Below are positions 27,587 through 63,358 of a stretch of DNA of 64,000 bases, in pieces. The stretch is from the NCBI GenBank assembly GCA_003171065.1, contig PMXQ01000080.1:7948-71947 (forward strand). The letters run 5' to 3'. How positions within the stretch are numbered: position 1 is the first letter of the stretch; each line of letters opens with the position of its first letter. Position numbers and translations under genes: made by a program. Origin of the DNA: Chloroflexota bacterium. GTDB taxonomy: Bacteria > Chloroflexota > Limnocylindria > Limnocylindrales > CSP1-4. The notes under the pieces are model-generated. The model made no database searches and was not told the origin of the DNA. It was given only the letters and a program-made list of their open reading frames with translations.

Positions 27587-27641
27587 GCGGCTTCGACGCG
27601 CTGGTATCGTCTGCTGGAACACCACCGCGGCCGGAGGTCAG

Positions 27642-34760: not shown

Positions 34761-34788
34761 TCCGGCCCGCCGGGGCTACCATTCGGGC

Positions 34789-39410: not shown

Positions 39411-42311
39411 ATGGTCGGGCGCGCCGTCACCACCCGCGCCGAACGGCGCAGCGAAGGCAGCTCATTGCTGCCGATCTTCGACCGACTCGCTCCGCCGGCC
39501 TCGATCGCCGACATCACCGCCCAGATCGAGGCGTGGACCAAGCCGGGCGAGGTCGTCCTCGATCTCAACGGCCGTGGCGGCTGGGTCGCGCGAGCTGCGA
39601 TCGCCGGGCAGCGTCGCGCCGCAGACCTCGAATCCCTGTCGCTGACGCGCCTTCTGGCCGATGTCGTGGTGCGCCCGCCGGACGTCCGTCACCTCGACGC
39701 GGCGGCCCAGGCGATCTCGATCCGGCCCCTCCTCGATGCTACCGTCAAGAAGACCATCGAGCAGCTCTTCGCCAGCACGTGTCCGGTCTGCGGACGGCCT
39801 GTTGTCCTCGAGTCACTGGTCTGGGAGCCGGGCGATGGGCGTGGCAGGACGGGAGCCAGGCGCGGTGCGGCAAGGCCGGGTCGGGCGGCGAAGCCGGGCG
39901 GGGCGGGAACTGCAGCCCCCGGAGCGGCCGCGGGACGTGCCATCCGCCGCGAGTTCCGGTGCACTTCGTGCCAGCAGCAGCCGGGCGATCCGGAGTTGCG
40001 CCGCGCCGAACCCACTCCGGGCGACCTGACTCTCGCCGCATTCACGGACCTCCCGGAGGCCGTGAGAGACAGCCTCCGCAAACGGTTCCCGACGCCGGCC
40101 GCGACGCCGGACCATGGGCTCCCGGGCCAGCTCGTCGACCTGCACACGGCGCGGCAGCTGCTCGGACTCAACGCGATCCTCGAGGGCATCGAGCTCGAGA
40201 CTCGCTCGGCGCCGCTGACTGCCGCCCTGAGGCTGGCGTTCCTCTACGCCGTCGCATCCGCAGGCAAGCTCAACTCATACCGCGGCCGGCCGCCAGTGCT
40301 GCGCATCTCGAGGGGCACGGTCCGGCTGCCGGCGGCTCACGCCTGGCGCGAGCGGAACCCCTGGGTCGCGTTCGAGGAAGGGCTGCGTATGGTGCGGAGC
40401 TTCGTGGGGCGCCTGGAATCGGACGAGAAGCGGTCGGTGGCGGCACGCCTCGCATCGGACCTGTTGGAGCTCCAGGAGGGGACCTCCAACGTGGTGATCG
40501 GCGAGGCGACGCCTGGATCGCTGAGGCGGATCGGCCTCGCGGGCGACCGCATCGCCCACTCCGGCACTCCCTCGCGGGTCCGGCTCGTCGTCGGCCAGGC
40601 CCCGTTGCGACTGACCCGCGACCGGCTCGCGGAGGCATACCACGAGACTGCGTGGGCCCTGGGGGCCGGCGCGGCCTCGATGCTGCCTTTTGAGGAGCTG
40701 TTCCGGCCGGCGCCGCGCGCCCCCCGCCGGAGCGCGGCCGAGGATCTGGCTCGCTCGGTGGGGCGGTCGCTGGCAATCGCCACTCCGGCGCTCGCCCAGA
40801 ACGGCCGCGCCGTCGTGCTGCTGGACGATGCCGAGCCGCGAACCCTTGTCGCAGCGGCGATCGGCGGAGCGGCGGCGGGATGCCGCCTCGTCGAGGCGCG
40901 TCTGCACCGCGGCGACGAAGACAGCCCGGCGGTGGCCGTATTCGTGCCGCCAACCGGGATCGTCGCACCGGGGCCTCGCACGCGCGCCAATCGGCCACTC
41001 CCGCCGCTCGAAGGCGGCGCCGGCGACCCGGGCACCGTCACGGGGCAGGGGGTCTTCGCAGCTCCGGAGAAGCTCGACGAGGGGCCGTTCCGCCCTCCGG
41101 CCGCCGCGCAGGCCGTCAACGACACGGCCATCGAGCTGCTCAAGGCCAGGGGCGAGCCGGCCTGCTTCGAACACATGCTGGGCGATCTGCTGGTGGGGCT
41201 CGATCGCTCGGGGCAGCTGGCCCGCTTCGCCCGCCAGTTCCGGCCACCTCGTGCCGACCAGGGCTGGGACGCCTGGGTCGACCCCGAGGGCGGTCCGGCG
41301 GCCGCCCCGAGCGCGCCCGCCGCGCAGCCGCCGGCCGGCGTCGCACCGCCCGCCCCCGGCAGGCCCGCCGCGTCGAAGGAAACCTCCGGCGACGACGCCG
41401 CACAGGATGAGGAGCCGCCCGAGCCCACCGGCCCGGTGGACGAGCTCCTGGCGCTCATCCGCAACGAACTTGACCGCGGCACAAACCGTCGCGTCCGCCA
41501 GATCGAGCCCGGTGAGTACTGGCTCGGCTCGGAGGAGGACCGCTCCGGCGCCGCCCAGCCGCTCGCGGATCGGACGGAGTGGGCCGTCTTCAGCCTCCTC
41601 TCGTCATCGCGCCAGATGACTGAGGCAGCCGTCTTCGAGCGGACGACCGGCCTCTTCCAGGACCGCGACGCCCCCGATGGCGAGCTGATGCGGGCCTGCC
41701 TGGCGAGCTACAGCGCGCCGGGCAGCACGCCCGAAGCGGTGGCGACCGGCGATCAGCTGGAGCGACGCTCGGCCGAGCACGACGCCATCATCGCGGTCAT
41801 AGCGGCCCTGGGTCACCGCCTCGGGACGCGCGTCTGGATCGGGCGCCGCCAGCAGGTCCGCCGCGTCGATGGCCGCCCCCTCGCGGACCGGCTCGACGTG
41901 GAGGAGCGTGACATCGTGCCGACCGTGATCGCCTGGGGCCCGGAGGCCGAGCTCGAGCGCGTCGACTGCGCATGGTACGTCCGCCACAAAGCGACCTTCC
42001 TCTTCGAGGTCGAGTGGACGGCAATGCTCGGCGATCCGGTCCTGGTGCGCCACAGCCGCTTCCCCAGCGACGACAAGGTCGTTCGCTTCCTGGTCGTCCC
42101 GGCCGAGCGCGCCGAGCTGGTGCGCTACAAGCTCGCCCGTTCGCCGTTGCTGCGCCGCGCGTTCGCCGAGCGCAACTGGCACGTCCTCAAGTGGGACCAG
42201 CTGGCCGCCTTCGCGGCGCGCACGGAGGTGTCGCTGGGCGACCTGGAGCCGTACCTGGGACTCGACGCCGACGCGGCCGCCGGTGAGCAGCTGCCGCTGT
42301 TCGAGGGTTGA
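39411..42311 (+). CDS. Large (966 aa) uncharacterised protein: MTase-like Rossmann motif, CxxC...CxxC Zn-ribbon, and a possible endonuclease-like C-terminal domain
   Basis: Long ORF with normal codon bias. It contains VVLDLNGRGGWVARAAI (resembling SAM-MTase motif I) and CPVCGRPV...FRCTSCQQQ. There is a low-complexity Pro/Ala linker. The C-terminus reads ...RVDCAWYVRHKATFLFEVEWT.... I saw no (D/N/S)PP(Y/F/W) motif. Confidence 0.7.
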   Translation: MVGRAVTTRAERRSEGSSLLPIFDRLAPPASIADITAQIEAWTKPGEVVLDLNGRGGWVARAAIAGQRRAADLESLSLTRLLADVVVRPPDVRHLDAAAQAISIRPLLDATVKKTIEQLFASTCPVCGRPVVLESLVWEPGDGRGRTGARRGAARPGRAAKPGGAGTAAPGAAAGRAIRREFRCTSCQQQPGDPELRRAEPTPGDLTLAAFTDLPEAVRDSLRKRFPTPAATPDHGLPGQLVDLHTARQLLGLNAILEGIELETRSAPLTAALRLAFLYAVASAGKLNSYRGRPPVLRISRGTVRLPAAHAWRERNPWVAFEEGLRMVRSFVGRLESDEKRSVAARLASDLLELQEGTSNVVIGEATPGSLRRIGLAGDRIAHSGTPSRVRLVVGQAPLRLTRDRLAEAYHETAWALGAGAASMLPFEELFRPAPRAPRRSAAEDLARSVGRSLAIATPALAQNGRAVVLLDDAEPRTLVAAAIGGAAAGCRLVEARLHRGDEDSPAVAVFVPPTGIVAPGPRTRANRPLPPLEGGAGDPGTVTGQGVFAAPEKLDEGPFRPPAAAQAVNDTAIELLKARGEPACFEHMLGDLLVGLDRSGQLARFARQFRPPRADQGWDAWVDPEGGPAAAPSAPAAQPPAGVAPPAPGRPAASKETSGDDAAQDEEPPEPTGPVDELLALIRNELDRGTNRRVRQIEPGEYWLGSEEDRSGAAQPLADRTEWAVFSLLSSSRQMTEAAVFERTTGLFQDRDAPDGELMRACLASYSAPGSTPEAVATGDQLERRSAEHDAIIAVIAALGHRLGTRVWIGRRQQVRRVDGRPLADRLDVEERDIVPTVIAWGPEAELERVDCAWYVRHKATFLFEVEWTAMLGDPVLVRHSRFPSDDKVVRFLVVPAERAELVRYKLARSPLLRRAFAERNWHVLKWDQLAAFAARTEVSLGDLEPYLGLDADAAAGEQLPLFEG

Positions 42312-44568: not shown

Positions 44569-45045
44569 ATGGAAGCGGCCGTGCTGACCAATACCGACGC
44601 TCTCTACGAGCGGGCATTCGACGACCATTGGAGTGACATATTCCAATTCCTGCTCGCATGGACTAATGACTGGGCGGCGGCCGAGGATCTGACCCAGGAG
44701 ACTTTTCTTCGACTTTGGAGGAACCGGGTCCGGGTCGATTGGGGGACCCCCATCCTGCCGTGGCTGATAGTCACGGGACGGCGACTGGCCAACGACAGAT
44801 TTCGCCAGATCGCGCGGCGCCTGGTGGGCGCGCCTTCTCCTTCGAACTTCGACGAAGACCAATACGTTCGGTGGCTGGACGTTCGAGCGGCGCTCAAGAA
44901 CCTGTCGCCACTCGAGCGGAGCGCAGTTGTCTTGGTGACATTCCAAGGGACACCGACCGCCGAAGTGGCCCGTGTCCTGAACACCACGCCTGGCGCTGTG
45001 AGAGCAGCCCTCAGCCGCGGTCGCGAGAAGCTCGGAGACGCCTGA
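44569..45045 (+). CDS. ECF-type sigma-70 family RNA polymerase sigma factor
   Basis: Region 2 AEDLTQETFLRLWRNR and region 4 HTH LSPLERSAVVLVTFQGTPTAEVARVLNTTPGAVRAALSRGREKL. The start is set at ATG 44569. Confidence 0.85.
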   Translation: MEAAVLTNTDALYERAFDDHWSDIFQFLLAWTNDWAAAEDLTQETFLRLWRNRVRVDWGTPILPWLIVTGRRLANDRFRQIARRLVGAPSPSNFDEDQYVRWLDVRAALKNLSPLERSAVVLVTFQGTPTAEVARVLNTTPGAVRAALSRGREKLGDA

Positions 45046-45800
45046 TGAGTGAGTCTCGATACGACAAGACCTGGAGGGAGTGGAAAGCGGTGGCAAACAG
45101 TGCACACAAGCCGAAGGTCGCACCGCGCGACCGGACGCATCGTGGCGGCATACCCATCGGCTTCGGCCTCGCAGCGGTCGCAATCGTGCTGGCCGTGGTG
45201 GCGGCCCGCAATTGGGTGCCTCAGACGGGCGGCGTCGCCGGTGCGCCTAGCCAGAGCCAATCAGCACCCACAGAGATCGCCGCGCAGAGTCCCTCGCCCT
45301 CGGCCACTGCTGGACCCTCTGAGTCAGTTTCGCCCTCGGCCAGTGTGGAACCATCTGAGTCGATTTCGCCCGCGCCGAGTCCCAGCGCGATCTTGACGCC
45401 GACTCCTTCCTCGATCCTGGTTGGCACTCCCCAGCCCGGCGACCAGGCGAAAGCCGTGTCGATCGCCACGCAATACCAGACCCTCATTAGGCAAGGGAAC
45501 TACGCCGGCGCATGGGCCATGCTCGGGCCGGAGCAGAGGTCCGATTCGTACACGACGTACCAGAAGGACTGGACCGAGATCGCCAAGTCGTGGGGATCTC
45601 TGGACTTCACGCTGGGGACCGTAACCCACGACTGGCAGAGTTGGGATCCGACCCTGCCGAAGACGTACGCGGGGGACTACAGCAGGGCTTTCATCATCGT
45701 GGTCGACTACCCGTTCACAAGTCAGACGAACTTCTGGGGCGAACTGCTCGTCATGCCGACAGTCGATGAGACGAAATGGGAAGTAGTCTTCCTCCGGTGA
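45045..45800 (+). CDS. Single-pass membrane protein, putative anti-sigma factor
   Basis: The start overlaps the sigma stop (TGATG). It has a short cytoplasmic N-terminus, one TM segment (IPIGFGLAAVAIVLAVVAA), a Ser/Pro-rich linker and a C-terminal globular domain of about 130 aa. Confidence 0.55.
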   Translation: MSESRYDKTWREWKAVANSAHKPKVAPRDRTHRGGIPIGFGLAAVAIVLAVVAARNWVPQTGGVAGAPSQSQSAPTEIAAQSPSPSATAGPSESVSPSASVEPSESISPAPSPSAILTPTPSSILVGTPQPGDQAKAVSIATQYQTLIRQGNYAGAWAMLGPEQRSDSYTTYQKDWTEIAKSWGSLDFTLGTVTHDWQSWDPTLPKTYAGDYSRAFIIVVDYPFTSQTNFWGELLVMPTVDETKWEVVFLR

Positions 45801-45943
45801 CCGCCGGTAGCTAGGTAAAGTGGCGCCAATCGCGAAAGTCTGGGTGCGTATTGCGCCCAAGTTGCGCCACAAGTGACTATGCCTCTGCTCGGGGTCGGGG
45901 GAGGCCATGTCTTGCCGCCCGCAGCGCATAAGGAGGAACCACT

Positions 45944-47107
45944 GTGAGAGGCTTGCTTAGGCGTGCCCGGATTCTGCCGGCGGTAGCGATCCTGCTAGTT
46001 TCGGGGTTGACTTCAGCACCGCCTGCGTCGGCGGCATCACCGGCTGTGGAGACCTACACGCCGATGTCAACGGGAGGAGTCACAGTCACTCCCGACCTGA
46101 CCCCCGACGATGCCACGCGCCTTGCGCTCAAGCGAAGCGGTCTCCTTCGCCTGAACCCCACCACGCGGATGGTCGAGGTCGCACAACCTGGCTCGGCGCT
46201 CGCCCGCTCGTTCGCCGCCTCCGCGCAGACGTATACGTCATACACGCTTCGCTACCAGTTCAGCAGCCAGATCATCGAGCCAGTGGGCTACGTCTCGCCC
46301 AACGACCGAGATGACACGAGTCCGACTCGCCAGCCCTACGCCGACAAAAACTTCTGGAACCTGTGCGGTCCTGGCGCGGGCACCGTGGCGGCCTACTACG
46401 CGGGTGCTGGCAACTCGGATAATGACTACCCGCTCAAGATGACAGGTACATTCCAGGAAAGATGGGGCCCTCACCAGGAGCCGACCTATTGGAACGCCAG
46501 TGACCTTGACTACCGGTATGGGTACCAGACTTACGGCCGAGCCTTCATCCTCTACATGGCTGATGCCGTCCGGCCCCTGAATCCCACGAGCGCCAACTTC
46601 ACCCGGACGTTCTACACGCTCGTCAATGGCGTGAGGACGAAGGTAACGCAGAACATGGGCGGGATAATGGACTACACCGCCTATCCGGCGACAACTATGA
46701 CCATCGGTGCCCTCAAAGACGCTATGAATTGGGAGATGTCGGATCACAACGGGGGCGGCCCGTGGCCGGGGTACTTCTGGGACCACGTCACCTCGTTCAA
46801 CCAGACGCTTCTACACAACGATGTTGTCAACGACATCGTGAATAACGGTGTTCCCGTCATCGTCACCCTGGACGCTCAGGCGCTCATCTACAACAGTTCC
46901 ACGGGCCAGGGCAACTGGGCTGCCCCTGGCCAGGTCATAGGACACGCTATCACGATTATCGGGTACGACGACGTGGCCGGGATCTACCAATACGTAGACA
47001 CCTGCGGGGCACAATGCAGTGGCCGAGTCAACGGCGGCGTTCACACGCTCAGCCAGACGGCGATGTACAACGCCGTGCACTCTTATGGGGGTGGCTACCT
47101 CGTCTAG
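45944..47107 (+). CDS. Secreted papain-like (C39-like) cysteine peptidase family protein
   Basis: AAGGAGG precedes the GTG start. Signal peptide RRARILPAVAILLVSGLTSAPPASAAS. Candidate catalytic Cys in FWNLCGPGAGTVAAYY and His in GHAITIIGYDD. Confidence 0.55.
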   Translation: MRGLLRRARILPAVAILLVSGLTSAPPASAASPAVETYTPMSTGGVTVTPDLTPDDATRLALKRSGLLRLNPTTRMVEVAQPGSALARSFAASAQTYTSYTLRYQFSSQIIEPVGYVSPNDRDDTSPTRQPYADKNFWNLCGPGAGTVAAYYAGAGNSDNDYPLKMTGTFQERWGPHQEPTYWNASDLDYRYGYQTYGRAFILYMADAVRPLNPTSANFTRTFYTLVNGVRTKVTQNMGGIMDYTAYPATTMTIGALKDAMNWEMSDHNGGGPWPGYFWDHVTSFNQTLLHNDVVNDIVNNGVPVIVTLDAQALIYNSSTGQGNWAAPGQVIGHAITIIGYDDVAGIYQYVDTCGAQCSGRVNGGVHTLSQTAMYNAVHSYGGGYLV

Positions 47108-48718: not shown

Positions 48719-49381
48719 TCAGTCCTGCGAAGCCTGGCGGAGCATGTCGGCCAGGGCGGCGTACCCGCCTTCGTCGGCCAGGTCGGGCGGCGTGCGCCCA
48801 TCGTCGGCGGGTCGAGTCGGATCGGCGCCGCGAAGGAGCAGCAGGTCGACGATCGCTTCGTCGCCGTTGTGCGCGGCTGTGTGCAACGGCGTCCAGCCGC
48901 CCTTCTGGACCGCGTTGGCCGAGGCTCCGAGGGCGAGCAGCAGACCGGCCAGGTCGCGATGCCGCGCTGAGACGGCGCTGTGGAGCGGCGTCACGCGCGA
49001 GTCGTTGGCGGCCACGGCGTTGCGATCCGCGCCACGCTCCAGGAGCAGCCTGGCCACCTCGAGCTGTCCGAAGTGGGCGGCCAGATGTAGCGGCGCGAAG
49101 CCGTCGCCGCCTCTGTCTTCGATCTCCCATCCCTCGGTCAGCTTGCGGCGAACGACTGCCACATCGCCGAGTGCGGCGGCCTCGAACAGGCTGAGCGCCT
49201 CTGGCCCGACCTTCTCGGCCAGCCTCTCGGCCAGTCGTGGATGACCGCCGTAGGCGGCGGCGAGCACGGGCGAGAGCCCGGCCTCGTTGCGGGCCTTGAG
49301 CAGGCCGGCGTCGACCGCCAGCGCCTCGTCGACCGCCTTCTGGTCGCCCTTCTGGATCGTCTCGAAGAAGTCAGCCGTCAT
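48719..49381 (-). CDS. Ankyrin-repeat protein
   Basis: Repeats GFAPLHLAAHFGQLEVARLLLERGADRNA and GWTPLHTAAHNGDEAIVDLLLLRGADP. The ATG overlaps the upstream stop (ATGA). Confidence 0.85.
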   Translation of the reverse strand: MTADFFETIQKGDQKAVDEALAVDAGLLKARNEAGLSPVLAAAYGGHPRLAERLAEKVGPEALSLFEAAALGDVAVVRRKLTEGWEIEDRGGDGFAPLHLAAHFGQLEVARLLLERGADRNAVAANDSRVTPLHSAVSARHRDLAGLLLALGASANAVQKGGWTPLHTAAHNGDEAIVDLLLLRGADPTRPADDGRTPPDLADEGGYAALADMLRQASQD

Positions 49382-50808
49382 GCATCGCCCTTTCCGGCGC
49401 CCTTCCGGAGCGCGATTTCGTGCAGTGCCTCGACCAGCCGGTCGATCTCCGCAGCGGTGTTGTAGTGGACGAAGCCTACACGGACCATGCCACCCGATTC
49501 GGCCAGTCCGAGCGCGCGGATCAGCTCGTACGCGTAGTAGTCGCCGTCCCACACGGCAATGCCGCGCCGGCCGAGCTCCGTGGCGATCTGGCGTGGGGAG
49601 TGGCCTGCCAGCGTGAAGGCGAAGGTGGGAACGCGCTCGGCCAGGCGGTTCGGGTCGACGATGCCGCGCAACCTCATGCCCGGCACATCGCCCAACGCCG
49701 TCAGCGCGCGCCGGGCCAGACCTCGCTCCGTGGCGCCGATGACCGCCATGGCGGCGCGGAGTCGGGCGCGCCGAGTCGTGGCCGCGCCACTCCCACTCGC
49801 GCCGCCACTCCCACTCGCGCCGCCACTCCCACTCGCGCCGCCACTCGCGCCCGCGCCGCCACTCGCGCCGTGCGTCTCGCCCAGCCACTCCAGGTACCCG
49901 AACGTGGCGAGCAGCCCGGCCAGCGACTCGCCCGGGAGAGTGCCCGTCTCCCATTTGCCCGGCGGCTCGTTCGTGGCCGGGCGGACTTTGTACGCAGCCA
50001 GGCTCTCGAGGAGATCCCGCCGCCCGTAGAGAAGCCCCAGATGCGGCCCGAAGAACTTGTAGGGGGAGCAGACCAGGAAGTCGGTGCCCAGCGCCGCCAC
50101 GTCCAGCAACACGTGCGGTGCCGCATGGACCGCGTCCACGTACGTGAGAGCGCCTGCGGCGTGGGCCATCTCCACGATCCGCGGAACCGGGTTGAGCGTG
50201 CCCACGGCGTTCGAGGCGAGCCCGACGGCGACCAGGCGCGTCCGCGGCCCCAGCGCTCGCTCCAGGACGTCCAGATCGAGCGTGCAGTCTTCCTCGTGGA
50301 TGCCGACCCATCGGACCCGCACGCCCCGGTCCTCCTCTAGGGCGAGCCACGGAGCCACGTTGGCGTCGTGGTCGAGGCGCGTGACTACGACTTCATCGCC
50401 TGCCTTGAGGGTCCGCCCGATCGCGCGGCTCAGCGCGAAGGTGAGCGTAGTCATGTTCTGCCCGAAGACAACCTCGCTGGCGTCGGCCGCCCCGAGGTAG
50501 TCCGCCGCAGCCGCGTGAACCTCGGCCAGCATGGCGTCGCTCTCTTCGCTCGTCGGAAAAGCGCCCTCGTGGTTGGCATTGAAACGCCCGAGGTATTCCG
50601 CCATGGCGTCGATCGTCCGGCGAGGCACCTGTGTGCCGCCGGGACCATCCAGATAGACGTATGGCCGGCCGTCGTGCTCGCGCGAGAGCGCCGGGAACTG
50701 CGCTCGAACTGCGCCGACCCCGGCCTCGGTCAGAGGTTCGGCAGCGGCACTTTCGAGCGGCACGGACGGCGTGGCAGAGGGGTGGGAGGCTGGTCGATCG
50801 GCCGGCAT
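49378..50808 (-). CDS. Class V aminotransferase / cysteine desulfurase-like PLP enzyme
   Basis: The fold-type I pattern includes the PLP-lysine motif FLVCSPYKFFGPHLGLLYG. The start is placed at ATG 50808 (MPADRP). It contains an internal Gly/Ser/Ala repeat insert. Confidence 0.85.
   Translation of the reverse strand: MPADRPASHPSATPSVPLESAAAEPLTEAGVGAVRAQFPALSREHDGRPYVYLDGPGGTQVPRRTIDAMAEYLGRFNANHEGAFPTSEESDAMLAEVHAAAADYLGAADASEVVFGQNMTTLTFALSRAIGRTLKAGDEVVVTRLDHDANVAPWLALEEDRGVRVRWVGIHEEDCTLDLDVLERALGPRTRLVAVGLASNAVGTLNPVPRIVEMAHAAGALTYVDAVHAAPHVLLDVAALGTDFLVCSPYKFFGPHLGLLYGRRDLLESLAAYKVRPATNEPPGKWETGTLPGESLAGLLATFGYLEWLGETHGASGGAGASGGASGSGGASGSGGASGSGAATTRRARLRAAMAVIGATERGLARRALTALGDVPGMRLRGIVDPNRLAERVPTFAFTLAGHSPRQIATELGRRGIAVWDGDYYAYELIRALGLAESGGMVRVGFVHYNTAAEIDRLVEALHEIALRKGAGKGDA
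49781..49868. repeat. Imperfect 18-bp tandem repeat (GCCGCCACTCCCACTCGC-like, about 4-5 units) inside the aminotransferase CDS
   Basis: Read directly from the sequence. On the minus strand it encodes GASGGAGASGGASGSGGASGSGGASGSG. Confidence 0.9.
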
Positions 50809-51087
50809 GGTGCTCCGCGATTGGGGAGAGCGTGACCTGTCGATGGTACGACGCGGCGGCCGACCAAGGCGTAGCCCGAATCCGCCGACCTCCACCTGAC
50901 TGGGAGACTGGCTGTGCCGGCGGGGCGTCAAACGAACCTCATGCAACCGCACCGGACAGGCCAAAGCTGCAACGAAACCGCAGGGTCCTGGGCAACGTTG
51001 AGACGCCGGATTGACGGCTTCCGGCGTTCCATCCTACAAGTAAGGGTAGTTACAGGAGGACCGTTTGGCAGGTGCCATACCGGCCAC

Positions 51088-53218: not shown

Positions 53219-54475
53219 CTACGAGGCGCGAACCGACGGGTTGGTGTTCCGCCCGCCGCCGAAGATGCCCATGAAGCCGCTGCCGACCTTGGCCAGGCCT
53301 GGCTCGGCCGTGGCGATCATGCGGTCGGCGAGCGCCTCGATGTCCTCGATGACCTTCTCTTTGGGGAAGCGTTCTACGGCGGAGCGGCCCTCGTTGGCAG
53401 CCCGAACGAAGAGCATGCCGGCAGACCGAATCTCCGCCAGCGCGGGCATGCCGACGGTTCGTTCCATGTCGGCAACCGAAACGCCGCTGTTGGCACGGTT
53501 CACGACCATGGCCAGGCGCTCGCGGATCTCGAGCTCGACCGCCACCTCGCGGAGCTGGACCGCGGCCCGGATGGCAGGCACGTCGGGCGTGACCGGCACG
53601 AGGATCTTGTCGGCCCGCTCGAAGATGACCTGGTTGAGGGGCCCGTAGTCCGGGTGCATGTCAACCACGACCCAGTCGAAGGCCTGACGAGCGGCAGTGA
53701 TCGCCTCGGCCACGCGCTTCGGCTCGAGGATCTCCGTGTGCAGCGGCGACTCCGCCATCACCAGCACCGCGACGCCGTTGTGATGGACTGAGGCGATTTC
53801 GGCAAACGACTCGACGGCGCCGGTGGTGAGGTCTTCCGTCCACGCATCGGCGACGGTGCGGACGTTCTCCATGCCCAGCGACGAGGCCACATGCCCGGTC
53901 ACGGTATCGCAGTCCACGAGCAGCACGCGCTGCTCCTTGCGGAGCTGCAGCATCGCGGCGACGTTGACCGCTATCGTCGTCTTGCCGACGCCACCCTTGG
54001 GGTTGAACACGATGACGATCTGGCCGCGGCGGGAGTCTCCGTTGTCCGCCGAAGGTCCGCCATCGGTATGGATGACGCCGCCGGTGGACTCCTCCGTGGG
54101 GACCTCAGCGCGGATGAGCATCGCCTCGACCCGCCAGCGCAGAGACTCGGCGGAGTAGGGGCGAGTGAAGTACTCGTCGCTGACACGGGCTCGTCCCGCC
54201 AGTCCCATCCGGTCCAGGGCTCGGGCCGCCACGACCATCAGAGCCGGGATGTTGCGGTCGTCGTCGTGGAGGAGACTGTACATCTCGATCGTGCGATCGA
54301 AGTCGTTCTCCCCGTCCAGGATGGCCACGCCGATGTCCCGGCGCTGGTCGAGAAGAACCTGGAGCTCCTCGGCAGTGTTGACGGCAAGCGCGTCGTAGCC
54401 GGCCTCAGCCAGCTGCGCGCTGACGGCGGCCAGCTCCGCAGGCGGTAGGGCGATTGCGACTGCTGACCGGGGCAC
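53219..54475 (-). CDS. ParA/MinD-family ATPase with N-terminal pseudo-receiver domain (CpaE/TadZ-like architecture)
   Basis: Deviant Walker A IVIVFNPKGGVGKTTIAVNVAAML. The N-terminal 120 aa have a CheY-like pattern (DIGVAILDGE ... YFTRPY) but lack the N-terminal acidic pair. Confidence 0.8.
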   Translation of the reverse strand: MPRSAVAIALPPAELAAVSAQLAEAGYDALAVNTAEELQVLLDQRRDIGVAILDGENDFDRTIEMYSLLHDDDRNIPALMVVAARALDRMGLAGRARVSDEYFTRPYSAESLRWRVEAMLIRAEVPTEESTGGVIHTDGGPSADNGDSRRGQIVIVFNPKGGVGKTTIAVNVAAMLQLRKEQRVLLVDCDTVTGHVASSLGMENVRTVADAWTEDLTTGAVESFAEIASVHHNGVAVLVMAESPLHTEILEPKRVAEAITAARQAFDWVVVDMHPDYGPLNQVIFERADKILVPVTPDVPAIRAAVQLREVAVELEIRERLAMVVNRANSGVSVADMERTVGMPALAEIRSAGMLFVRAANEGRSAVERFPKEKVIEDIEALADRMIATAEPGLAKVGSGFMGIFGGGRNTNPSVRAS

Positions 54476-54519
54476 TGTGACGGGGTCTCCCTTTGGTGCG
54501 CGGGCGCGACGCCGTAAGT

Positions 54520-55455
54520 CTAGCCTTCAGCCTCCGGGTCGTGCGCGGAGACGTTGAGCACTCCATCGCGCTCAGAGACGACCCTGGCCTGGAAGTTGGG
54601 TAGTGTCGAGATGAGCGAACCCAGCGAGATATCCGGGCCGTGGCCCACGGTGAAGATGAACTCGCCGTCTGGGCCGGACGAAACGCCGACGTTCTTGACG
54701 CCGGGCAGACGCCCCAGCTGGCGCTTGAACGTGGCGATGCTGGCCACGCTGACGAGCCCGACGACGACGACCTGAGTCGATTCGACCACCTCCGGCTTGG
54801 GCGCGGCAGCGGCACGAGCCTCCCTGGCGGCCTCCTCTTCGGCAGCTGCGGCAGCTGCGACATCTTCAGCGGAGGGCTCTTGGGGAGGACTCACTACCGC
54901 TTCCGGTTCGCCGCCGAGCAGGTCTTCGGAGCGCATGATCTTCTCGCGCCGCGCCTTGATTTCGGTCGCGAGAGTGCCCCGCTCGGATTCCGCAAAAGTG
55001 GGCGGGTCCGGCATCTGTGCTGCCATGCTGGCGAAGACCGTCGGATCGGCTTCCTGGAGGAGCTGCTCGAAGAACTGAGCGACTTCCTCCGTGAACCCCG
55101 AGACGCGCTTCTGGACGCGCTCGATCTCGAGCTCGATGGCGGAGTTGTACTCCTGCAGCTCCTGCTCGAGCAGCTCGCGACGCCGGGCGATCCGCTGCTC
55201 TGTCTCGACCCGGATGCGCTCTACTTCTGCCTTGGACCAATCCCGGATGGCGCTGACGTCGGCCTCGGCGCCCTTGCGCAGGGATGCCGCCTCGTCGTCC
55301 GTGCGCGCGTGGAGCTTCTCGACGTACGCTTTCGCATCTGCCTGGCACTGATCGATCGTCGCCTGCCGCGCCGTCTCGGCGGTCGAACGCATGGCCTGCG
55401 TGAGGTCCGCCAGGAATCGGTTCGGATGACGCGCGGCCGTCTCGTTCACGCTCAT
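54520..55455 (-). CDS. Coiled-coil protein, paralog A, with an extra C-terminal globular domain
   Basis: MSVNETAARHPNRFLADLTQAMRSTAETARQA...RRRELLEQELQEYNSAIELEIERVQKRV...DPTVFASMAAQMPD aligns without gaps to 55809..56519. It carries an additional C-terminal VVVVGLVSVASIATFKRQLGRLPGVKNVGVSSGPDGEFIFTV. Confidence 0.65.
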   Translation of the reverse strand: MSVNETAARHPNRFLADLTQAMRSTAETARQATIDQCQADAKAYVEKLHARTDDEAASLRKGAEADVSAIRDWSKAEVERIRVETEQRIARRRELLEQELQEYNSAIELEIERVQKRVSGFTEEVAQFFEQLLQEADPTVFASMAAQMPDPPTFAESERGTLATEIKARREKIMRSEDLLGGEPEAVVSPPQEPSAEDVAAAAAAEEEAAREARAAAAPKPEVVESTQVVVVGLVSVASIATFKRQLGRLPGVKNVGVSSGPDGEFIFTVGHGPDISLGSLISTLPNFQARVVSERDGVLNVSAHDPEAEG

Positions 55456-55620
55456 CTCCCCGTTTGTCTCTCCGGGCCCCGGCCGGGCGCCGGAGTCTAC
55501 CCGATCACGTTTGCTACCCAGTGCTTGGTCACAGGAACGTTACCGCAACGGGCCCGTGGCTCCAAGCGCCATTATCGCGGGTCCAAGGTTAGCATCCGGA
55601 GGCTTTCGCTCTGTTGGATG

Positions 55621-55691
55621 ATGGGCCGGGTGTTGCCGGCGGGCACTCCGCTGGAGGTACCAGGACTAACCGCCCTTCCGTACCGCCTCAC
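55621..55691 (-). ncRNA. Conserved ~70-nt noncoding element, copy A (two predicted hairpins), about 165-235 nt upstream of paralog A
   Basis: About 62 of 71 positions are identical to 56670..56739 by hand alignment, while the flanks do not align. Hairpin 1 is GCCGG/CCGGC around a GTGTTG loop. Hairpin 2 is GGTAC...GTACC. Whether it acts as RNA or as a DNA operator is unresolved. Confidence 0.4.
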
Positions 55692-55808
55692 AGCCGCTGT
55701 CCTTCCACATATGTCCACCCAGACCATTGCGTGCCGAGCCAGTCACCGCAGCGCGTACGGGCGGTTCGGCGCCTGGCGAGCCTCCGCGCGTGAGGCCCCG
55801 AGTCGCCT

Positions 55809-56519
55809 CTACCGGGGCTCTTCCGCGTGGGTTTGCGCCGCGGCGCCAGCGGCGGAGTGCCTCCACCAGCGATCCCGAGGCTCCGTCGCCTTCTCGCCGT
55901 TGGAGCCGGCCGTAGCCGGAGCGTCTGAAGCCGGAGCGTCTGAAGCCGCGGCCGCCTCGGCCGTGTCGGCGGGCTCGCCGCGTTCGGCGCGTTGGGCCCG
56001 TTCGTGCTTCGCTCGGAGCTCACTGGCGAACGCCTCTCGGTCCAAATCGGCGAAGACGGGCGCGTCGGGCATCTTGGATGCCATGGTGGCGAAGACGGTG
56101 GGATCAGCGCCCTGGAGGAGCTGCTCGAAGAAGTGAGAGACCTCGGTCTGGAAGGTCTCGACCCGTTCCTGAACGCTTTCGATCTCAAGCTCGACTGCGT
56201 CGTGGAACTCCGCCAGCTCCTGCTCGAGCAGCTCGCGGCGTCGGGACATGCGCTGCTCCGTTTCCTGGCGAACCCGTCCCACCCTGGCCTTCGATCGCTC
56301 GCGGATCGTGGCCACGTCGGCCTCGGCTGCCTGCCGCAGTTCCTCGGAATCGTCCAGCGTTCGGGCCTGGAGCTGTTCCACGTACGTCTTGGCGTCGGCC
56401 TGGTACAGCTCGATGTCCGCCAGCCGCGCCGCCTCGGCGGCCGAGCGCATAACCTGCGTCAGCTCCGCCATCAAAAGGTTCTGGTGGTGCGCCGCCGACT
56501 CGTTCACGCTGATCTCCAT
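55809..56519 (-). CDS. Coiled-coil protein, paralog B
   Basis: MEISVNESAAHHQNLLMAELTQVMRSAAEAARLA...RRRELLEQELAEFHDAVELEIESVQERV...DPTVFATMASKMPD. It has a low-complexity acidic/Ala tail containing an (SDAPA)x2 repeat. Confidence 0.65.
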   Translation of the reverse strand: MEISVNESAAHHQNLLMAELTQVMRSAAEAARLADIELYQADAKTYVEQLQARTLDDSEELRQAAEADVATIRERSKARVGRVRQETEQRMSRRRELLEQELAEFHDAVELEIESVQERVETFQTEVSHFFEQLLQGADPTVFATMASKMPDAPVFADLDREAFASELRAKHERAQRAERGEPADTAEAAAASDAPASDAPATAGSNGEKATEPRDRWWRHSAAGAAAQTHAEEPR

Positions 56520-56669
56520 GGTCCCGGCCCCCGCGTCCTCGCAGAACGGAGGCTAGAGGCCCACGATACTACCCCGCGTCCGGCCCGGGCCCAACCATGA
56601 CACACCAGCCTCGGGACGCCAGCCCATTGTTGCGAGTCCCAGGCCGGGCGGCTAGGGACTTTTCCGAAG

Positions 56670-56739
56670 CATGGCCGGGGTGTTGCCCGCCAGCACCCCG
56701 CTGGAGGTACCAGGACTACCGCCCTTACGTACCGCCGCA
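56670..56739 (-). ncRNA. Conserved ~70-nt noncoding element, copy B, about 150-220 nt upstream of paralog B
   Basis: See copy A. Hairpin 1 here is CGGG/CCCG, with one compensatory pair change relative to copy A. The 1-nt indel and one substitution fall in the hairpin-2 loop. Confidence 0.4.
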
Positions 56740-56784
56740 CGCGAGGGATGCCAAGGGGAACCGGCGATGGTCGCCGAGGCCAGC

Positions 56785-57573
56785 TCAAGTCTCGGGCGGC
56801 CCCGGACGATCCGCTCGGGTCCTCACCGCCTTGTCGGCCCAGGCCGCGAGGACTCGGTCCTTGTGCGGGCGGATGGGACAATGCTCGTCCCGGTTGGCGG
56901 CCTCGTCGCAGTAGCCCAGGGGCACGCACTTGGGGGCGAGGAAGCTGCCGAGGAACGGGCTGACGGCGAAAACCTCGTGGCGAACGAGCTGGAAGAGCCT
57001 CCGGATCTCCCACTGGGCCATCGTGCACAGCCGCAGGCCTGACATGTATATGAGGGCGCGCAGATTCGCCGTCATGACCAGGTTCGTGCGCGTGGCGTTG
57101 GGGAAAACGAAGCGGGCGTCCTCGCCGGGAATGCCGGCCTCGACGAGCTCCGAGTACAGCTCCAGCGCCCCTTCGACCTGTTCCTCGTACTGGTGCCTCA
57201 GCTCCGGATCGGCCTCGGCAATGGTCGCCGGCAGCATCGTGGACACGCCCTTCTTGTACGAGACGTACCGCTGGCTCTGCTGGTCGAAGGCGACGCCGGC
57301 TCTGTGTCGGACGAGCTGGTGGCTGAGGGTCCGACTGACGCCGGTGATCGCGAAGGTGAAGACGACATGCTCGATGGTCGAGCCGTGCCCGGACTCGATC
57401 ACCCGGGCGATCAGCTCACGTTGCTTCTCTAGGGCGATTCGACCGTCGACCGCGCGCTCGAAGATGTCGTCCGGAGCCAGCTCCGAGTAGCAGGTCCGGC
57501 ACGCCGTGTAGATGAGCGGCACGTAGTAGCGCTCGACGATCTCGCGGTTGGGGAAGATGAGCGTGGCCCTCAT
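56785..57573 (-). CDS. thyX: FAD-dependent thymidylate synthase
   Basis: ThyX signature LVRHRAGVAFDQQSQRYV (RHRxxSxxxxSQRY). The start is set at ATG 57573 (MRATLIFPN); the upstream ORF-track extension is not protein-like. Confidence 0.9.
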   Translation of the reverse strand: MRATLIFPNREIVERYYVPLIYTACRTCYSELAPDDIFERAVDGRIALEKQRELIARVIESGHGSTIEHVVFTFAITGVSRTLSHQLVRHRAGVAFDQQSQRYVSYKKGVSTMLPATIAEADPELRHQYEEQVEGALELYSELVEAGIPGEDARFVFPNATRTNLVMTANLRALIYMSGLRLCTMAQWEIRRLFQLVRHEVFAVSPFLGSFLAPKCVPLGYCDEAANRDEHCPIRPHKDRVLAAWADKAVRTRADRPGPPET

Positions 57574-57830: not shown

Positions 57831-58493
57831 GTGGACGAGATGCAGGGACTGGTTCTGTTCGGCGACGTTGTCGGGTCGCGGCGCGACTCATCCGCGGCCG
57901 CCGAGTGGCTGCGCCACCTCGTCGAGGAGCTGGACCAGGCTTATGGCGAGCAGCGGCTGGCCCCGTTCGGGTTCACCCAGGGCGATGAGCTGCAGGGGCT
58001 TCTGGTCGCCGACGCCGATCCGTTGGTGGCGGTGCTGCACGCGGACTTGAGCCCCGCGGCGCGGCCGATTCGCTGGGTGTGCGTGAAGGGCGGAGTGGAT
58101 ACAGGAGAAGGGCCGGCCACGCAGCGTACGGGCCAGGCCTTCCTGGCCGCGCGGGACGCGATCGAGGCGGCCCGAGCGGGGCACGATCGCCTGGTCATCC
58201 GGACCGGCCAGCCGGAGGCAGACGAGCTTCTGGCCGGCATGACGCCGGCCCTGGCCGACATGCTCGAGGGTTTAACGCCGCGCCAGCGCGCCGTCGGTCG
58301 CATGGCGTTGATCGAAGGCCTGCGCCAGTCGGAAGTCGCCGACAGGCTGGGCGTGCGGCGGGCAACGATCTCGGTTTCGTTCGGGCGGGCGAAGGTCCAG
58401 ACTTTGCAGCGGCTCGTGGCCGCGATCCGCAAGGTCTATTCAAGCGCTGGCACGCCATCCGACTCTGGCGAAGGTCCTGGCCATCTCCCATGA
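57831..58493 (+). CDS. SatD-like protein (nucleotidyl-cyclase-like N-domain plus sigma-region-4-like HTH)
   Basis: LVLFGDVVGSRRDS...GFTQGDELQGLL in the N-domain and LTPRQRAVGRMALIEGLRQSEVADRLGVRRATISVSFGRAK as the C-terminal HTH. The family is assigned from memory of the architecture. Confidence 0.5.
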   Translation: MDEMQGLVLFGDVVGSRRDSSAAAEWLRHLVEELDQAYGEQRLAPFGFTQGDELQGLLVADADPLVAVLHADLSPAARPIRWVCVKGGVDTGEGPATQRTGQAFLAARDAIEAARAGHDRLVIRTGQPEADELLAGMTPALADMLEGLTPRQRAVGRMALIEGLRQSEVADRLGVRRATISVSFGRAKVQTLQRLVAAIRKVYSSAGTPSDSGEGPGHLP

Positions 58494-60649: not shown

Positions 60650-61025
60650 CGAGGGCTCGCCCGTGGGTCGGTGCCGGCGCGAGGGTCGGTCGGCGGGAGC
60701 CGGGGCCTCAGCCGGCTTGGTGGTGGCTTGATCGACAGGCTCGGTCATGACGTCATCGTGACACGGCCGGGCGGACACGGCGCACCGAGATTCGAGCGCG
60801 GTCGCGGCGCGCGACTGCACAGCCGATTCGACTGTGGTGGTCGGCGCTACTCCTCTCGCCCCGACCGCAGGTTCGGCGCGGGGCGGCTCCCAGACGCGCA
60901 CCACCGCAACTTGCGTATTGACAGCGCATCCACACCGTATCGACCGCGCAACGGACGGCGGCTATCCTGCCGGCGGGTAGCGAGAAGGGGCCCGATGGGG
61001 TCGGCGCTACCAGCAAGGAGGCACC

Positions 61026-62036
61026 ATGCGGTCGCTTATGCGTGTGTTCGCGCGCTCCGAGGGGAGCGGAAGTCGAGGAGGAAGGAAGGGGGGAAGGTTG
61101 CTCAGGTCGCTGGGTGCCGCAGCGGCGGCTACAGTTCTCGCCGCCCTGGTCGCGTCTCCGGCGTTGGCCGCAGACGGGACGGCGGCCAACGAGTCTGCGT
61201 TCACGACCGGGGTCGTGACCGTATCCGGGGGCGGGGCCATCCCGGCAAACGTTCCCGTCGCCTACATTCAGCTCAAGCAGAGCCAGCTGGCGGCCCTCGC
61301 GAGCGGTACCCTGACGCCCCAGTCGATCATCCGCTCGGCGAAGCTCGGCTCGGGCTCGACGCTTCAGTTCTCGGCCAACGCGGTTTCGCCGATGTCCAAC
61401 CTGAGCTCGATCACGATCAACTTCCCGGGCTTCCACCAGATGACCACGTGGTACTGCGTGGTCGCCTTCGTCCAGTCAGTCCTCTTCTGGGACGTCAGCC
61501 CCTCGTACCGGTACTACGGCGGGGCGTCCACCCTCACCCAAGGGCAGAACAACCTGTACAACGGGCCACTCAAGGGCACGAAAAAGGACGGAGTAAAGGA
61601 CCCCGTCGCCCTTTCGTGGATCGATGGCCAGTTCTCCAGCAACGGCTACGCGTTCTTCTATCTGGGAGCATGGCCGAGCAACGCGGCGGGGTTCATGAAC
61701 ATGATCCGTCTGGACACGAACGACTATTACGAGGCCAACTACGTGCGGATCGATCTCACAACGTACGACTACGCGTGGGGTCAGGGCAAGAACCCCGACG
61801 GAAGCCACCCGCTTCACGCCACGGGGGGAGTCGGCTACGACGACTCGGCGGGAACCGTGACAAGCTACGACCCGTTCTCCTACAGCCCAGCCGAGAAAGG
61901 ATTGCCCGGCACCGCCTGCACGTCCAACTGGTTCACGAGCAGCTACGAGTGGGGCTGCAACTGGACGCTCAGCCAGGACAGATACTACCTGGCGATGGAC
62001 AAGCAGACCAGCGGCGACGACCCGATGTGGTACTGA
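61026..62036 (+). CDS. Secreted papain-like (C39-like) cysteine peptidase family protein, second copy
   Basis: Signal peptide RLLRSLGAAAAATVLAALVASPALAADG. Candidate Cys in TTWYCVVAFVQSVL and His in LHATGGVGYDDSAGTVTSYDP. Confidence 0.5.
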   Translation: MRSLMRVFARSEGSGSRGGRKGGRLLRSLGAAAAATVLAALVASPALAADGTAANESAFTTGVVTVSGGGAIPANVPVAYIQLKQSQLAALASGTLTPQSIIRSAKLGSGSTLQFSANAVSPMSNLSSITINFPGFHQMTTWYCVVAFVQSVLFWDVSPSYRYYGGASTLTQGQNNLYNGPLKGTKKDGVKDPVALSWIDGQFSSNGYAFFYLGAWPSNAAGFMNMIRLDTNDYYEANYVRIDLTTYDYAWGQGKNPDGSHPLHATGGVGYDDSAGTVTSYDPFSYSPAEKGLPGTACTSNWFTSSYEWGCNWTLSQDRYYLAMDKQTSGDDPMWY

Positions 62037-63358
62037 TGGCCGTCAGACCTGCCCCGATGTCGGTGGCGCGCAGCCTTGCCGCCACTGCGTTGGTCGTGTT
62101 GGTTTGGGCCTGCTCCCCCGGGGTCACCCCGACCCCGGGGGGGAGCGGGCTCCCGCGCGCATCGGCGAGCTCGGTGACCGCGGGCACGTCCGCTGCGAGT
62201 TCCCCGTCGCCGACCGGCCTACGCTGCGGCGACTCGCGCGGCAGCCTCGCGGCGCCGACTTACGCGTTCCTCCGAGTCTCCATCCCCGCTGGCTCGGACT
62301 CGTGCCAGGATATTGGGCCCCTGGCCAGCCCGCAGTTCCTGTCGATCACGAACGACGGGCCTAACGTGGCGTTCAACGCCCGGGATGCCGGGGACAGCGG
62401 CAACCTCTGGTACGGCGATCTCCGGACCGGGTCGGTCAAAGTCGTCTACAAGGCGACCGAGGCGAAGGGGGCGGTGACCGACATATGGACGCCGCAGCTC
62501 GCTGCCGGAAAGCTGCTCTGGATCGAGGACGTGCACGATGGGGACAGCACGAGCGATCCCGTGAAGGCCTGGTCTCTCAAGACCATGGACATCGCATCCG
62601 GCACCGTTACCGAACTCGCGCACGACGACATGCCGAAGTACGGCGGCCGGATGTACGCCGACAGCATCAAGTTCGACGGCAAACGGATCGCTGTTCTAGA
62701 GGCCCTGGCCGACGGCACGTGGCGCATCGAGGTCAGAGACCTCTCGGGCACGGTGCAGGGTTACGCCGCGGTCCCCGGGGACCCGTACGACTTCGCCCTG
62801 ACCTCCGACGGGCTGCTCTTCACGTCGGGCACGCAGGATCCGGTCAGCGGCGCGGTCGGCCACATGCACCTCTGGCGCTGGACGGTCGGCTCGGGAACCA
62901 AGGCCATCGGCACCGACTCCTACCAGGTCAACTCGGACGGTGGACTCGCAGCCTGGGTGCTCGACCCGGACGCGAGCAAGAACGTGAACGGCTGGTTCCG
63001 CGACCAGCGGCTGTACGCCGCTGCGAGCCCCTTCACTGCGCCGAAGGCCATCAGCCCCGTCCTATCCGCAACTGGAACGATGGGCTTGGACGGCATGGCC
63101 GTCGGCTCGGGAACCGTGGCCTGGTGGGAACGCGAGAGCTACGTCGACCAGGCCTGGCTCGACGTGCTCACGCTCTGGCAGCCCGGTTGGTCCAGCCCCA
63201 TCCAGGTGGACACCGGGGGCAGTTCGAGCTACTTCGTCTCGGCAAACGCCGGCTGGCTGGTCTGGACCGAGGAGGACGGGCGCGGCTCGGCCGACCAAAA
63301 GGAGCGGGTGAGGGGCATCCCGCTGTCCGTTCTGGCCTCCGAGCGAGGGCAGACCTGA
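62036..63358 (+). CDS. Putative lipoprotein with beta-propeller-like repeats
   Basis: The start overlaps the upstream stop (TGATG). Signal with a lipobox-like LVVLVWAC. The motif xDGxxxAW/F recurs about every 45 aa (NDGPNVAFN, AAGKLLWIE, FDGKRIAVL, TSDGLLFTS, NSDGGLAAW, GSGTVAWWE, NAGWLVWTE). Confidence 0.6.
   Translation: MAVRPAPMSVARSLAATALVVLVWACSPGVTPTPGGSGLPRASASSVTAGTSAASSPSPTGLRCGDSRGSLAAPTYAFLRVSIPAGSDSCQDIGPLASPQFLSITNDGPNVAFNARDAGDSGNLWYGDLRTGSVKVVYKATEAKGAVTDIWTPQLAAGKLLWIEDVHDGDSTSDPVKAWSLKTMDIASGTVTELAHDDMPKYGGRMYADSIKFDGKRIAVLEALADGTWRIEVRDLSGTVQGYAAVPGDPYDFALTSDGLLFTSGTQDPVSGAVGHMHLWRWTVGSGTKAIGTDSYQVNSDGGLAAWVLDPDASKNVNGWFRDQRLYAAASPFTAPKAISPVLSATGTMGLDGMAVGSGTVAWWERESYVDQAWLDVLTLWQPGWSSPIQVDTGGSSSYFVSANAGWLVWTEEDGRGSADQKERVRGIPLSVLASERGQT

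Follow-up and report, generated by a model that had tools for sequence, protein, structure and literature searches.

Bacteria use ParA/MinD ATPases as general-purpose engines for positioning, and each newly characterized partner protein has revealed a new cargo or mode of patterning. Here we describe a locus encoding such an ATPase, located at positions 53219–57573 of a 64,000-nucleotide stretch of Chloroflexota DNA (order Limnocylindrales; contig PMXQ01000080.1, positions 7,948 to 71,947), the whole of which will subsequently be referred to as the window. The Limnocylindria, soil and freshwater bacteria that are essentially uncultured, are abundant in soils and lakes; a literature search on their cell biology gave nothing relevant. 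The gene for the ATPase (53219–54475, minus strand, 418 amino acids; ParA/MinD family) is preceded by that of a coiled-coil partner, CC-A (54520–55455, minus strand, 311 amino acids). CC-A and the ATPase are tentatively proposed to act together as a stand-alone, ParA/MinD-type positioning module that is confined to the Limnocylindria and has a new family of partner proteins, and for which a membrane surface and a function at the division site or pole are favoured. Confidence in this proposal is modest, as its support consists of genomic coupling and motif logic. The positioning function is suggested by the logic of the family, and any assignment of cargo would be a guess.

TadZ proteins have the Walker A-like consensus K/RGGxGxS/T without the P-loop lysine (bioRxiv 10.64898/2026.07.08.737194), neither lysine is left in E. 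rectale TadZ (PMC10482377), and TadZ genes usually lie inside tad loci (PMC11407121). As in TadZ/CpaE, an atypical N-terminal receiver domain precedes the ParA/MinD domain in the window's ATPase, and annotation pipelines name its homologues CpaE. However, the Walker A motif that is degenerate in TadZ reads KGGVGKT here with both lysines invariant, there are no tad genes nearby, the fixed neighbour is a coiled-coil protein and the tail is MinD-like. The invariance of both Walker A lysines, unlike TadZ, is a new observation. As both lysines are kept, and as the ATPase scores 77.5 bits against the cut-off of 154.45 for the NCBIfam model Ssd/CpaE_hom_Actino (TIGR03815), it is not a typical TadZ. 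The actinobacterial ssd gene adjoins tad-like genes, and Ssd is not known to have a CC-A-like partner. Ssd (Rv3660c) is the best-scoring curated family and similarly has an extra N-terminal region that is absent from MinD (PMC10482377), although its cut-off is twice the score of the window's protein.

The resemblance to MinD/MinE extends to both Walker A lysines, a short hydrophobic-basic C-terminal tail and a partner in the same operon that has a conserved N-terminal peptide. In contrast, MinD has no receiver domain, and the ATPase scores 55–56 bits against MinD models with cut-offs above 200. No minC or minE is found here, and CC-A is unrelated to MinE or to the DivIVA of the MinD/MinJ/DivIVA arrangement.

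In PomXYZ of Myxococcus and McdAB of carboxysomes an orphan ParA-like ATPase is likewise encoded beside partners peculiar to the lineage, coiled-coil or disordered, which stimulate the ATPase and specify its cargo (PMC11407121). However, neither CC-A nor its paralogue CC-B has a sequence relationship to PomX, PomY or McdB, carboxysome genes are absent here, and the PomXYZ and McdAB ATPases use the nucleoid and have neither a receiver domain nor a membrane-type tail. In type Ib partition systems the ParG protein has a flexible N-terminal stimulating peptide and a repeat element lies just upstream of the parF/parG operon. The present locus is reminiscent of this arrangement in its small Walker ATPase, its adaptor with an N-terminal peptide and a small C-terminal domain, and its upstream repeat. 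It differs in being chromosomal and class-wide, in its reversed gene order, in having no ribbon–helix–helix (RHH) or helix–turn–helix (HTH) domain, and in having two boxes only.

Conservation of the CC-A–ATPase pair

With each species represented by a single genome, a scan gave 235 confirmed relatives, from which 80 loci were kept (individual loci are given below as L numbers); nearly all are labelled Chloroflexota or Limnocylindria. An ATPase homologue lies directly downstream of a CC-A homologue in 79 of the 80, a count that includes a few loci in which either gene is broken by an assembly frameshift or a contig end. The homologues range in identity to the window proteins from 35 to 94% for CC-A and from 44 to 94% for the ATPase. 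Intact pairs are separated by −4 to +76 nt, and in L038, L044 and L063 the CC-A stop overlaps the ATPase start; in the window there are 44 nt between the stop codon of CC-A and the start of the ATPase downstream. Both genes are under purifying selection, the ratio of non-synonymous to synonymous substitution rates (dN/dS) being 0.11–0.22 for CC-A and 0.10–0.16 for the ATPase.

The flanking genes are less constant. The order in the window's clade is thyX–(CC-B)–CC-A–ATPase–MscS. In distant lineages a divergent moaA gene is found upstream, a convergent DUF6812 or HAD gene plus an acetyl-CoA synthetase (ACS) gene downstream, and thyX is 3–5 kb away. As the adjacency is kept while the flanks change, the conserved unit is a stand-alone two-gene operon of CC-A and the ATPase, and thyX is a neighbour that does not belong to it. 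The sole exception to the pairing is L037 (7503–9770 of its locus; complete chromosome OY970306.1), in which the ATPase is missing and the order moaA–CC-A–DUF6812–ACS–MscS is retained. Its CC-A has no N-terminal peptide and contains two in-frame stops in the linker, so that this locus could represent a co-decay of the pair or errors of (long-read) assembly.

The original prediction for this DNA, made from the letters alone, had joined the ATPase with two tandem coiled-coil partners into a candidate positioning system, and had named co-occurrence across genomes as a test. That co-occurrence holds in 79 of the 80 loci despite the rearranged flanks. The prediction is thus partly supported: the linkage of CC-A to the ATPase is retained from it, but CC-B is confined to a sub-clade and thyX is unlinked in the more distant genomes.

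Two side observations were made on these loci. The SMAG loci L023, L035, L038, L047 and L067 are labelled Sulfotelmatobacter, Sulfomarinibacteraceae, Dormiibacterota, Saccharimonadales and Verrucomicrobiia; these taxon labels look unreliable, since all five follow the Limnocylindria gene order and L023 matches Limnocylindria loci almost exactly. The DUF6812 protein (~215–237 amino acids), encoded convergently to the ATPase position, is found on the minus strand in several distant lineages, in L078 (10438–11151), L020 (10365–11009) and L037 (9057–9770). Its gene is replaced by that of a HAD hydrolase in L038 and does not occur at this position in the window's clade.

Domain structure of the ATPase

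The ATPase consists of a receiver-like domain, a linker of ~25 residues, the ATPase domain and a C-terminal tail. It scores above the cut-off for Pfam AAA_31, CbiA, ParA and MipZ, which places it by its sequence in the ParA/MinD (A/D) superfamily. Every curated NCBIfam subfamily cut-off is missed. The match to TIGR03815 covers residues 144–365, ParA_partition (NF041546) gives 76.2 bits in two stretches (cut-off 180), and the MinD models TIGR01968 and TIGR01969 give 56.3 and 55.4 bits (cut-offs 212.9 and 201.75). The best PDB sequence matches are 3EA0, ParA (8RAY) and MinD (4V03). Homologues from the same clade are 80–92% identical.

The deviant Walker A motif KGGVGKT occupies residues 160–166 (53978–53998, minus strand). 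Among 66 full-length homologues, down to 44% identity to the window protein, K160 is kept in 65, and K165, D188, D190 and D272 are each kept in all 66. The catalytic set is complete: the ATPase keeps the two Walker A lysines (signature and P-loop), the aspartates of both switches and that of Walker B.

The atypical (pseudo-)receiver domain is formed by residues 1–125 (54101–54475, minus strand). It aligns to the receiver of B. subtilis PhoP (1MVO, E = 3e-4) and to the NCBIfam PhoB/OmpR model (E = 3e-6), and has the predicted secondary structure (βα)5. The phospho-acceptor aspartate D54 is invariant (66/66). The acidic, Mg-binding pair is replaced by L10–P11; in 65 of the 66 the conserved receiver lysine gives way to R105. 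At the threonine/serine position a serine is found in 42 of them and an alanine in the window's ATPase.

The full-length structure model of the ATPase is poor, with a predicted local distance difference test score (pLDDT) of 61, because the usable alignment held only sequences at least 82% identical to the query. Searching with this model, Foldseek retrieved only the ParA/MinD fold, with 3EA0, MinD and ParF as the top matches; TadZ is absent among the 50 matches listed, although the quality of the model is too low for this to be informative.

These features bear on three earlier claims. The deviant Walker A motif had been read correctly and proves near-invariant. An N-terminal CheY-like domain without an acidic pocket had been described, and the L10–P11 substitution agrees with this, but the retained D54 had been overlooked. 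Finally, the CpaE/TadZ architecture that had been assigned stands as far as a receiver-like domain joined to a ParA/MinD domain is concerned; the protein is not a typical TadZ/CpaE for the reasons given above.

The partner protein CC-A

More than 1800 close homologues of CC-A, all annotated as hypothetical, are found in the Limnocylindrales. An exhaustive phmmer search resolves the family into 1069 clusters at 50% identity, of which the best 150 representatives were inspected. A typical member has 400–600 residues in six parts, namely an N-terminal peptide, an acidic disordered stretch, a helical domain, a DP…PEPPxF motif, an acidic linker and a C-terminal domain. The long acidic linker carries two short motifs, DPRLAALGLTPDF and LAARLAGLVP. 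The window's clade has a reduced CC-A with neither N-terminal peptide nor extension, and the linker motifs are missing as well.

Residues 11–134 of the window's CC-A (55054–55425, minus strand) are modelled by AlphaFold, from a 72-sequence alignment, as a single helix of ~124 residues and ~18 nm (pLDDT 89–98). The hydrophobic period of the helix is 3.69 and it shows self-similarity at lags of 11 and 33. The hydrophobic core is narrow, comprising positions 1, 4 and 8 of each 11. Sequence and model together indicate a coiled coil built on an 11-residue (hendecad) repeat. Directly after the helix lies the conserved motif DPTVFASMAAQMPDPPTF (residues 137–154; 54994–55047, minus strand), in which D137, P138, A142, A145, P149 and P152 are invariant in 72 members of the family. 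The DP…PxF motif is also retained in CC-B.

The C-terminal domain (residues 225–305; 54541–54783, minus strand) is the most conserved part of CC-A among the 72 members. It is predicted to adopt a ferredoxin-like (HMA-like) βαββαββ fold with a pLDDT of ~90. Residues G233, L234, S236, V237, F243, K244, R245, S259–G261, G264–F266 and H272 are invariant. Foldseek matches this domain to HMA domains and S6 permutants (best E = 9e-3; TM-score 0.65, normalized to target length). A metal-binding HMA domain was considered and rejected, as the loop reads GLVSVAS, without cysteines or a CxxC motif (GMxCxxC in HMA), and the fold match is weak. An extra C-terminal globular domain in one of the two paralogues had been anticipated, and it is in CC-A that this confident fold is found.

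The sole Pfam match of the family is a weak one to Apolipoprotein, in 59 of the 72 members (best E = 1.6e-6; cut-off 90 bits), which is explained by the 11-residue repeats of the helix. The family profile gave no significant match to PDB sequences (best E = 0.05). Known coiled-coil families were also rejected for CC-A and CC-B: no Pfam or NCBIfam model, whether for DivIVA, FliH, ATP-synthase b/E, PspA or another known coiled-coil family, comes near its cut-off, the sub-cut-off values being E = 0.089 for FliH, 0.035 for V-type subunit E and 0.007 for Phasin. Domain scans found no HTH, RHH or ParB domain in either protein. A profile search against known families had been set as a test of the original prediction, and no characterized family was matched; CC-A appears to define a family without described relatives.

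A motif common to the ATPase tail and the CC-A N-terminus

C-terminal regions of ParA/MinD family members serve in surface binding (PMC11407121), and the membrane-targeting sequence of E. coli MinD is KGFLKRLFGG (PMC5471200). The tail of the window's ATPase (residues 391–418; 53222–53305, minus strand) contains GSGFMGIFGGGR, a candidate membrane-targeting or peptide-mimic motif. Throughout the class a tail of ~28 residues with a short hydrophobic-basic motif follows the fold. It varies with clade, the variants including GF[LM]GIFGGGRNTNPSVRAS, GFRLFxRxK, GFRLPxR, SLLKNLFGRK and GFLGNLLSR. Nearly all tails finish in [AV]-R-[AV] or RAS and their net charge is ~ +3. Tails such as SLLKNLFGRK and GFMGIFGG are similar by motif to the MinD sequence.

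Outside the window's clade the N-terminus of CC-A reads M-A-[TS]-T-[DE]-x-[KR]-x-G-F-[RK]-L-P-W, for example MATTDAKAGFRLPWSSD. Fifty-five loci match this peptide exactly, and the L022 group has the variant SFRLPW. Across six-frame translations totalling 2.46 million residues, GF[RK]LP[WF] occurs only at the CC-A N-terminus and in the ATPase tail of three loci. Many other ATPase tails read GFRLF or GFRLP, so that an FRLP core is common to them and to the partner N-terminus (L019–L082). In the window's clade the partner peptide is lost and the ATPase tail is the distinct GF[LM]GIFGGGRNTNPSVRAS. The occurrence of one motif in both the CC-A peptide and the GFRLF/GFRLP tails is a new observation.

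CC-B and the paired upstream element

CC-B (55809–56519, minus strand, 236 amino acids) is a truncated paralogue of CC-A that retains the DP…PxF motif as well as the coiled coil and has no C-terminal domain. The two proteins align without gaps over 177 residues at 60% identity (E = 8e-71), a longer gap-free alignment than the ~150 residues first noted. Among the loci, CC-B is complete only in L003–L012 and L014, with a fragment at a contig end in L002. Its dN/dS of 0.19–0.66 indicates faster evolution than that of CC-A or the ATPase. CC-B is a recent, truncated duplicate of one sub-clade, under relaxed selection and outside the core unit.

A conserved non-coding element precedes CC-A (55616–55690, minus strand), with the boxes GGTACG-N17-TGGTACC at 55656–55684. 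A second copy precedes CC-B (56666–56737, minus strand; boxes at 56706–56733), and the two are 90% identical over 60 nt. Against an expectation of 0.03, the window contains two matches to the pattern GGTACN{16,19}GGTACC. The paired element is present in 72 of 82 loci, exclusively upstream of CC-A or CC-B, and is retrieved by nhmmer with E = 8e-22; in distant lineages it lies ~95–145 nt before the start codon. The possibility that the long spacers between the genes encode a structured RNA leader was rejected, there being no Rfam match (E up to 1), an RNAalifold energy of −6.2 kcal/mol and no covariation. As its sequence is invariant and RNA structure finds no support, the element is read as a DNA site, probably an operator, a promoter or a centromere-like site. 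It was duplicated along with CC-B. The GGTACC pair upstream of CC-A and CC-B is also a new observation.

Proposed mechanism and alternative explanations

A possible mechanism can be outlined on the general ParA/MinD cycle (PMC11407121). On binding ATP the ATPase would dimerize and attach to a surface, for which the membrane is favoured because of the MinD-like tail. CC-A would form dimeric rods, the N-terminal FRLPW peptide of which would touch the ATPase dimer and trigger hydrolysis and release. The receiver-like domain may dock the ATPase onto a landmark or a regulator, and the C-terminal head of CC-A may bind or build the cargo. What the ATP-driven pattern places would most likely be a process of the cell envelope, whether the division site or a complex at the pole. 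The window's clade would represent a rewired form, with a CC-A that has neither the peptide nor the linker motifs and with the tail GF[LM]GIFGGGRNTNPSVRAS. To this the sub-clade would have added the truncated CC-B with its own upstream element, probably pairing with CC-A through the coiled coil.

Several points weigh against this proposal. The model depends on an N-terminal peptide that the window's own CC-A does not have, and common ancestry can account for part of an adjacency that is seen within one class. By hydrophobic moment the tails rank no higher than shuffled versions of them (median 0.60 versus 0.54 when shuffled), and membrane binding is therefore argued solely from motif likeness. 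With the ATPase model at a pLDDT of 61, the receiver-like fold and the tail helix are without structural confirmation.

A serious alternative, even if an unlikely one, is a nucleoid-based system resembling type Ib ParF/ParG or McdAB. Such a system would be chromosomal, with an ATPase dimer that associates non-specifically with DNA. CC-A would serve as the adaptor, its N-terminal peptide stimulating the ATPase and its dimeric C-terminal head attaching to DNA or to a protein cargo, and the GGTACC boxes would be its operator or centromere-like site. In small par loci the centromere and operator sites are arranged as upstream repeats, and the element found here is palindromic, stands upstream of the operon and occurs nowhere else in the 72 loci that carry it, although it offers two boxes only and no array. 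The ParA_partition score is nearly level with the best match, and the positive charge of the tails would suit DNA, even though these tails are closer to MinD anchors than to folded DNA-binding surfaces. The layout of CC-A, with an N-terminal basic peptide, a long spacer and a small C-terminal domain, parallels that of ParG, ParB and McdB (PMC11407121). However, no recognizable HTH or RHH is found in CC-A or CC-B, the C-terminal domain of CC-A matches (weakly) HMA/ferredoxin folds, and the order of partner before ATPase is opposite to that of par operons.

A role of the ATPase as a TadZ/CpaE (or Ssd) orthologue that localizes a Tad/Flp pilus machine encoded elsewhere in the genome, with CC-A as a polar landmark like PodJ or RomR, is improbable. 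The receiver-like plus ParA/MinD architecture, the CpaE_hom_Actino/Ssd model as best NCBIfam match and the best PDB match 3EA0, which carries the TadZ-like P-loop KGGDGGS, would all fit this role, and the JGI and NCBI pipelines call the homologues ‘pilus assembly protein CpaE’ or ‘CpaE family protein’. The role is nevertheless made unlikely by the intact Walker A motif, which departs from the TadZ consensus (bioRxiv 10.64898/2026.07.08.737194) and from the loss in E. rectale (PMC10482377), by a family score at half of the cut-off, and by the lack of any tad or pilus gene among the scanned reading frames of the 64-kb window or within ~8–10 kb of the examined loci, TadZ being usually encoded inside tad loci (PMC11407121).

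CC-A might instead coat inclusions of lipid or polymer, for example polyhydroxyalkanoate (PHA) granules or lipid bodies, through apolipoprotein- or phasin-like 11-mers, with the ATPase distributing the inclusions between daughter cells. The repeat length of 11 residues, the consistent if weak Apolipoprotein matches (59/72) and weak matches to Phasin and PHA_granule (E = 0.007–0.08) point in this direction. Every one of these matches is far below its family cut-off, however, and domain scans found no PHA synthase or related gene nearby. The hydrophobic stripe is narrow and confined to a-d-h positions, as suits the core of a coiled coil and not a lipid-binding helix, the apolar face of which is broad. 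A role as an inclusion coat is considered quite improbable.

Finally, that CC-A and the ATPase are neighbours by descent which work independently, CC-A being structural and the ATPase an orphan with another partner, would be compatible with coupling evidence that is all genomic and from one class of related organisms, but is very improbable given an adjacency that persists to 35–44% identity and through several flank rearrangements, start and stop codons that overlap in some lineages, an FRLP motif common to the partner N-terminus and the ATPase tail, and a single ATPase-less locus whose CC-A also has no N-terminal peptide and has stops in its linker.

The favoured positioning module of CC-A and the ATPase can also be extended to a bolder claim, which as a whole is thought unlikely. 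The pair would then be the main cell-organizing system of the Limnocylindria, for division site or polarity, a hybrid combining a TadZ-type receiver with a catalytically complete, membrane-anchored MinD-type engine that a new rod-shaped partner drives. The FRLPW peptide would compete with the FRLP-like tail for one docking site, giving a built-in switch, and the paired GGTACC operator would set expression.

Neighbouring genes and the wider window

As had been described from the letters, thyX, CC-B, CC-A and the ATPase gene follow one another on the same strand, in that order and all on the minus strand. All four genes are real by their codon-position GC content. GC at the third codon position (GC3) is 0.81–0.87 and at the second (GC2) 0.45–0.47 for the ATPase, CC-A and CC-B (GC3 0.83 for CC-B), the range of the window's other real genes. 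The thyX gene (56785–57573, minus strand) is identified by its Pfam Thy1 match (E = 3e-57). Its open reading frame (ORF) extends up to 57891, and a start at 57573 agrees with the Thy1 domain and with homologues. Downstream of the ATPase are a convergent MscS channel gene and an IclR regulator. Divergent from thyX, a gene at 57831–58493 (plus strand) encodes a SatD-like N-terminus and a sigma-70 region-4 HTH at the C-terminus; it holds this position throughout the window's clade (L001, L003–L018).

The absence of tad/pilus, parB and min genes that had been reported for the neighbourhood agrees with the domain scans, which found none of these in the scanned ORFs of the 64-kb window, a few small ORFs being left out. 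Similarly, no tad or pilus genes lie within ~8–10 kb of the homologues in L001, L002, L078, L037, L038 and L020. Consensus scans found no sigma-70 promoters or intrinsic terminators. An anti-phage defence system was rejected, as PADLOC gave a match to the P-loop only of the ATPase (E = 9e-4, 16 bits) and none to CC-A or CC-B.

The rest of the window consists mostly of a polysaccharide-synthesis cluster and housekeeping genes. The former is a large sugar-nucleotide/glycosyltransferase cluster at ~840–30400, with genes for GDP-mannose dehydratase and epimerases, UDP-glucose dehydrogenases, GT4, Bac_transf, an AT3-SGNH acyltransferase and PMT_2; from this gene content it probably makes a cell-envelope polysaccharide. 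Within it the large ORFs at 4782–6311, 20533–22206 and 27306–29021 have no Pfam match. Further large ORFs with gene-like codons and no Pfam match lie at 39411–42311, 44715–47107 and 60671–63358 (all plus strand). The unmatched ORFs include one of 966 amino acids, and a C-terminal beta-propeller-like region is found at 61–63 kb. Also near are a PolX-type polymerase (34657–36681), an MgtE_N/CBS protein with a PRC barrel (31699–32976) and an Nramp transporter. The class-V aminotransferase-like ORF at 49378–50964 (minus strand) contains a Gly/Ala/Ser repeat insertion, GASGGAGASGGASGSGGASGSGGASGSG, around 49800–49900; in other frames this repeat gives long spurious ORFs with repeats of the REWRREWEW type.

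Significance

The pair is class-wide, being found in 235 species-representative genomes, and its partner family exceeds 1000 clusters at 50% identity. The ATPase joins a feature of TadZ, the receiver domain, with features of MinD, the complete catalytic site and the anchor-like tail. The FRLP motif and the upstream DNA element offer concrete and cheap experimental handles, for which recombinant proteins suffice despite the uncultured hosts. If the cargo should be the divisome or the pole, the pair would show how cells are organized in a major lineage of the Chloroflexota.

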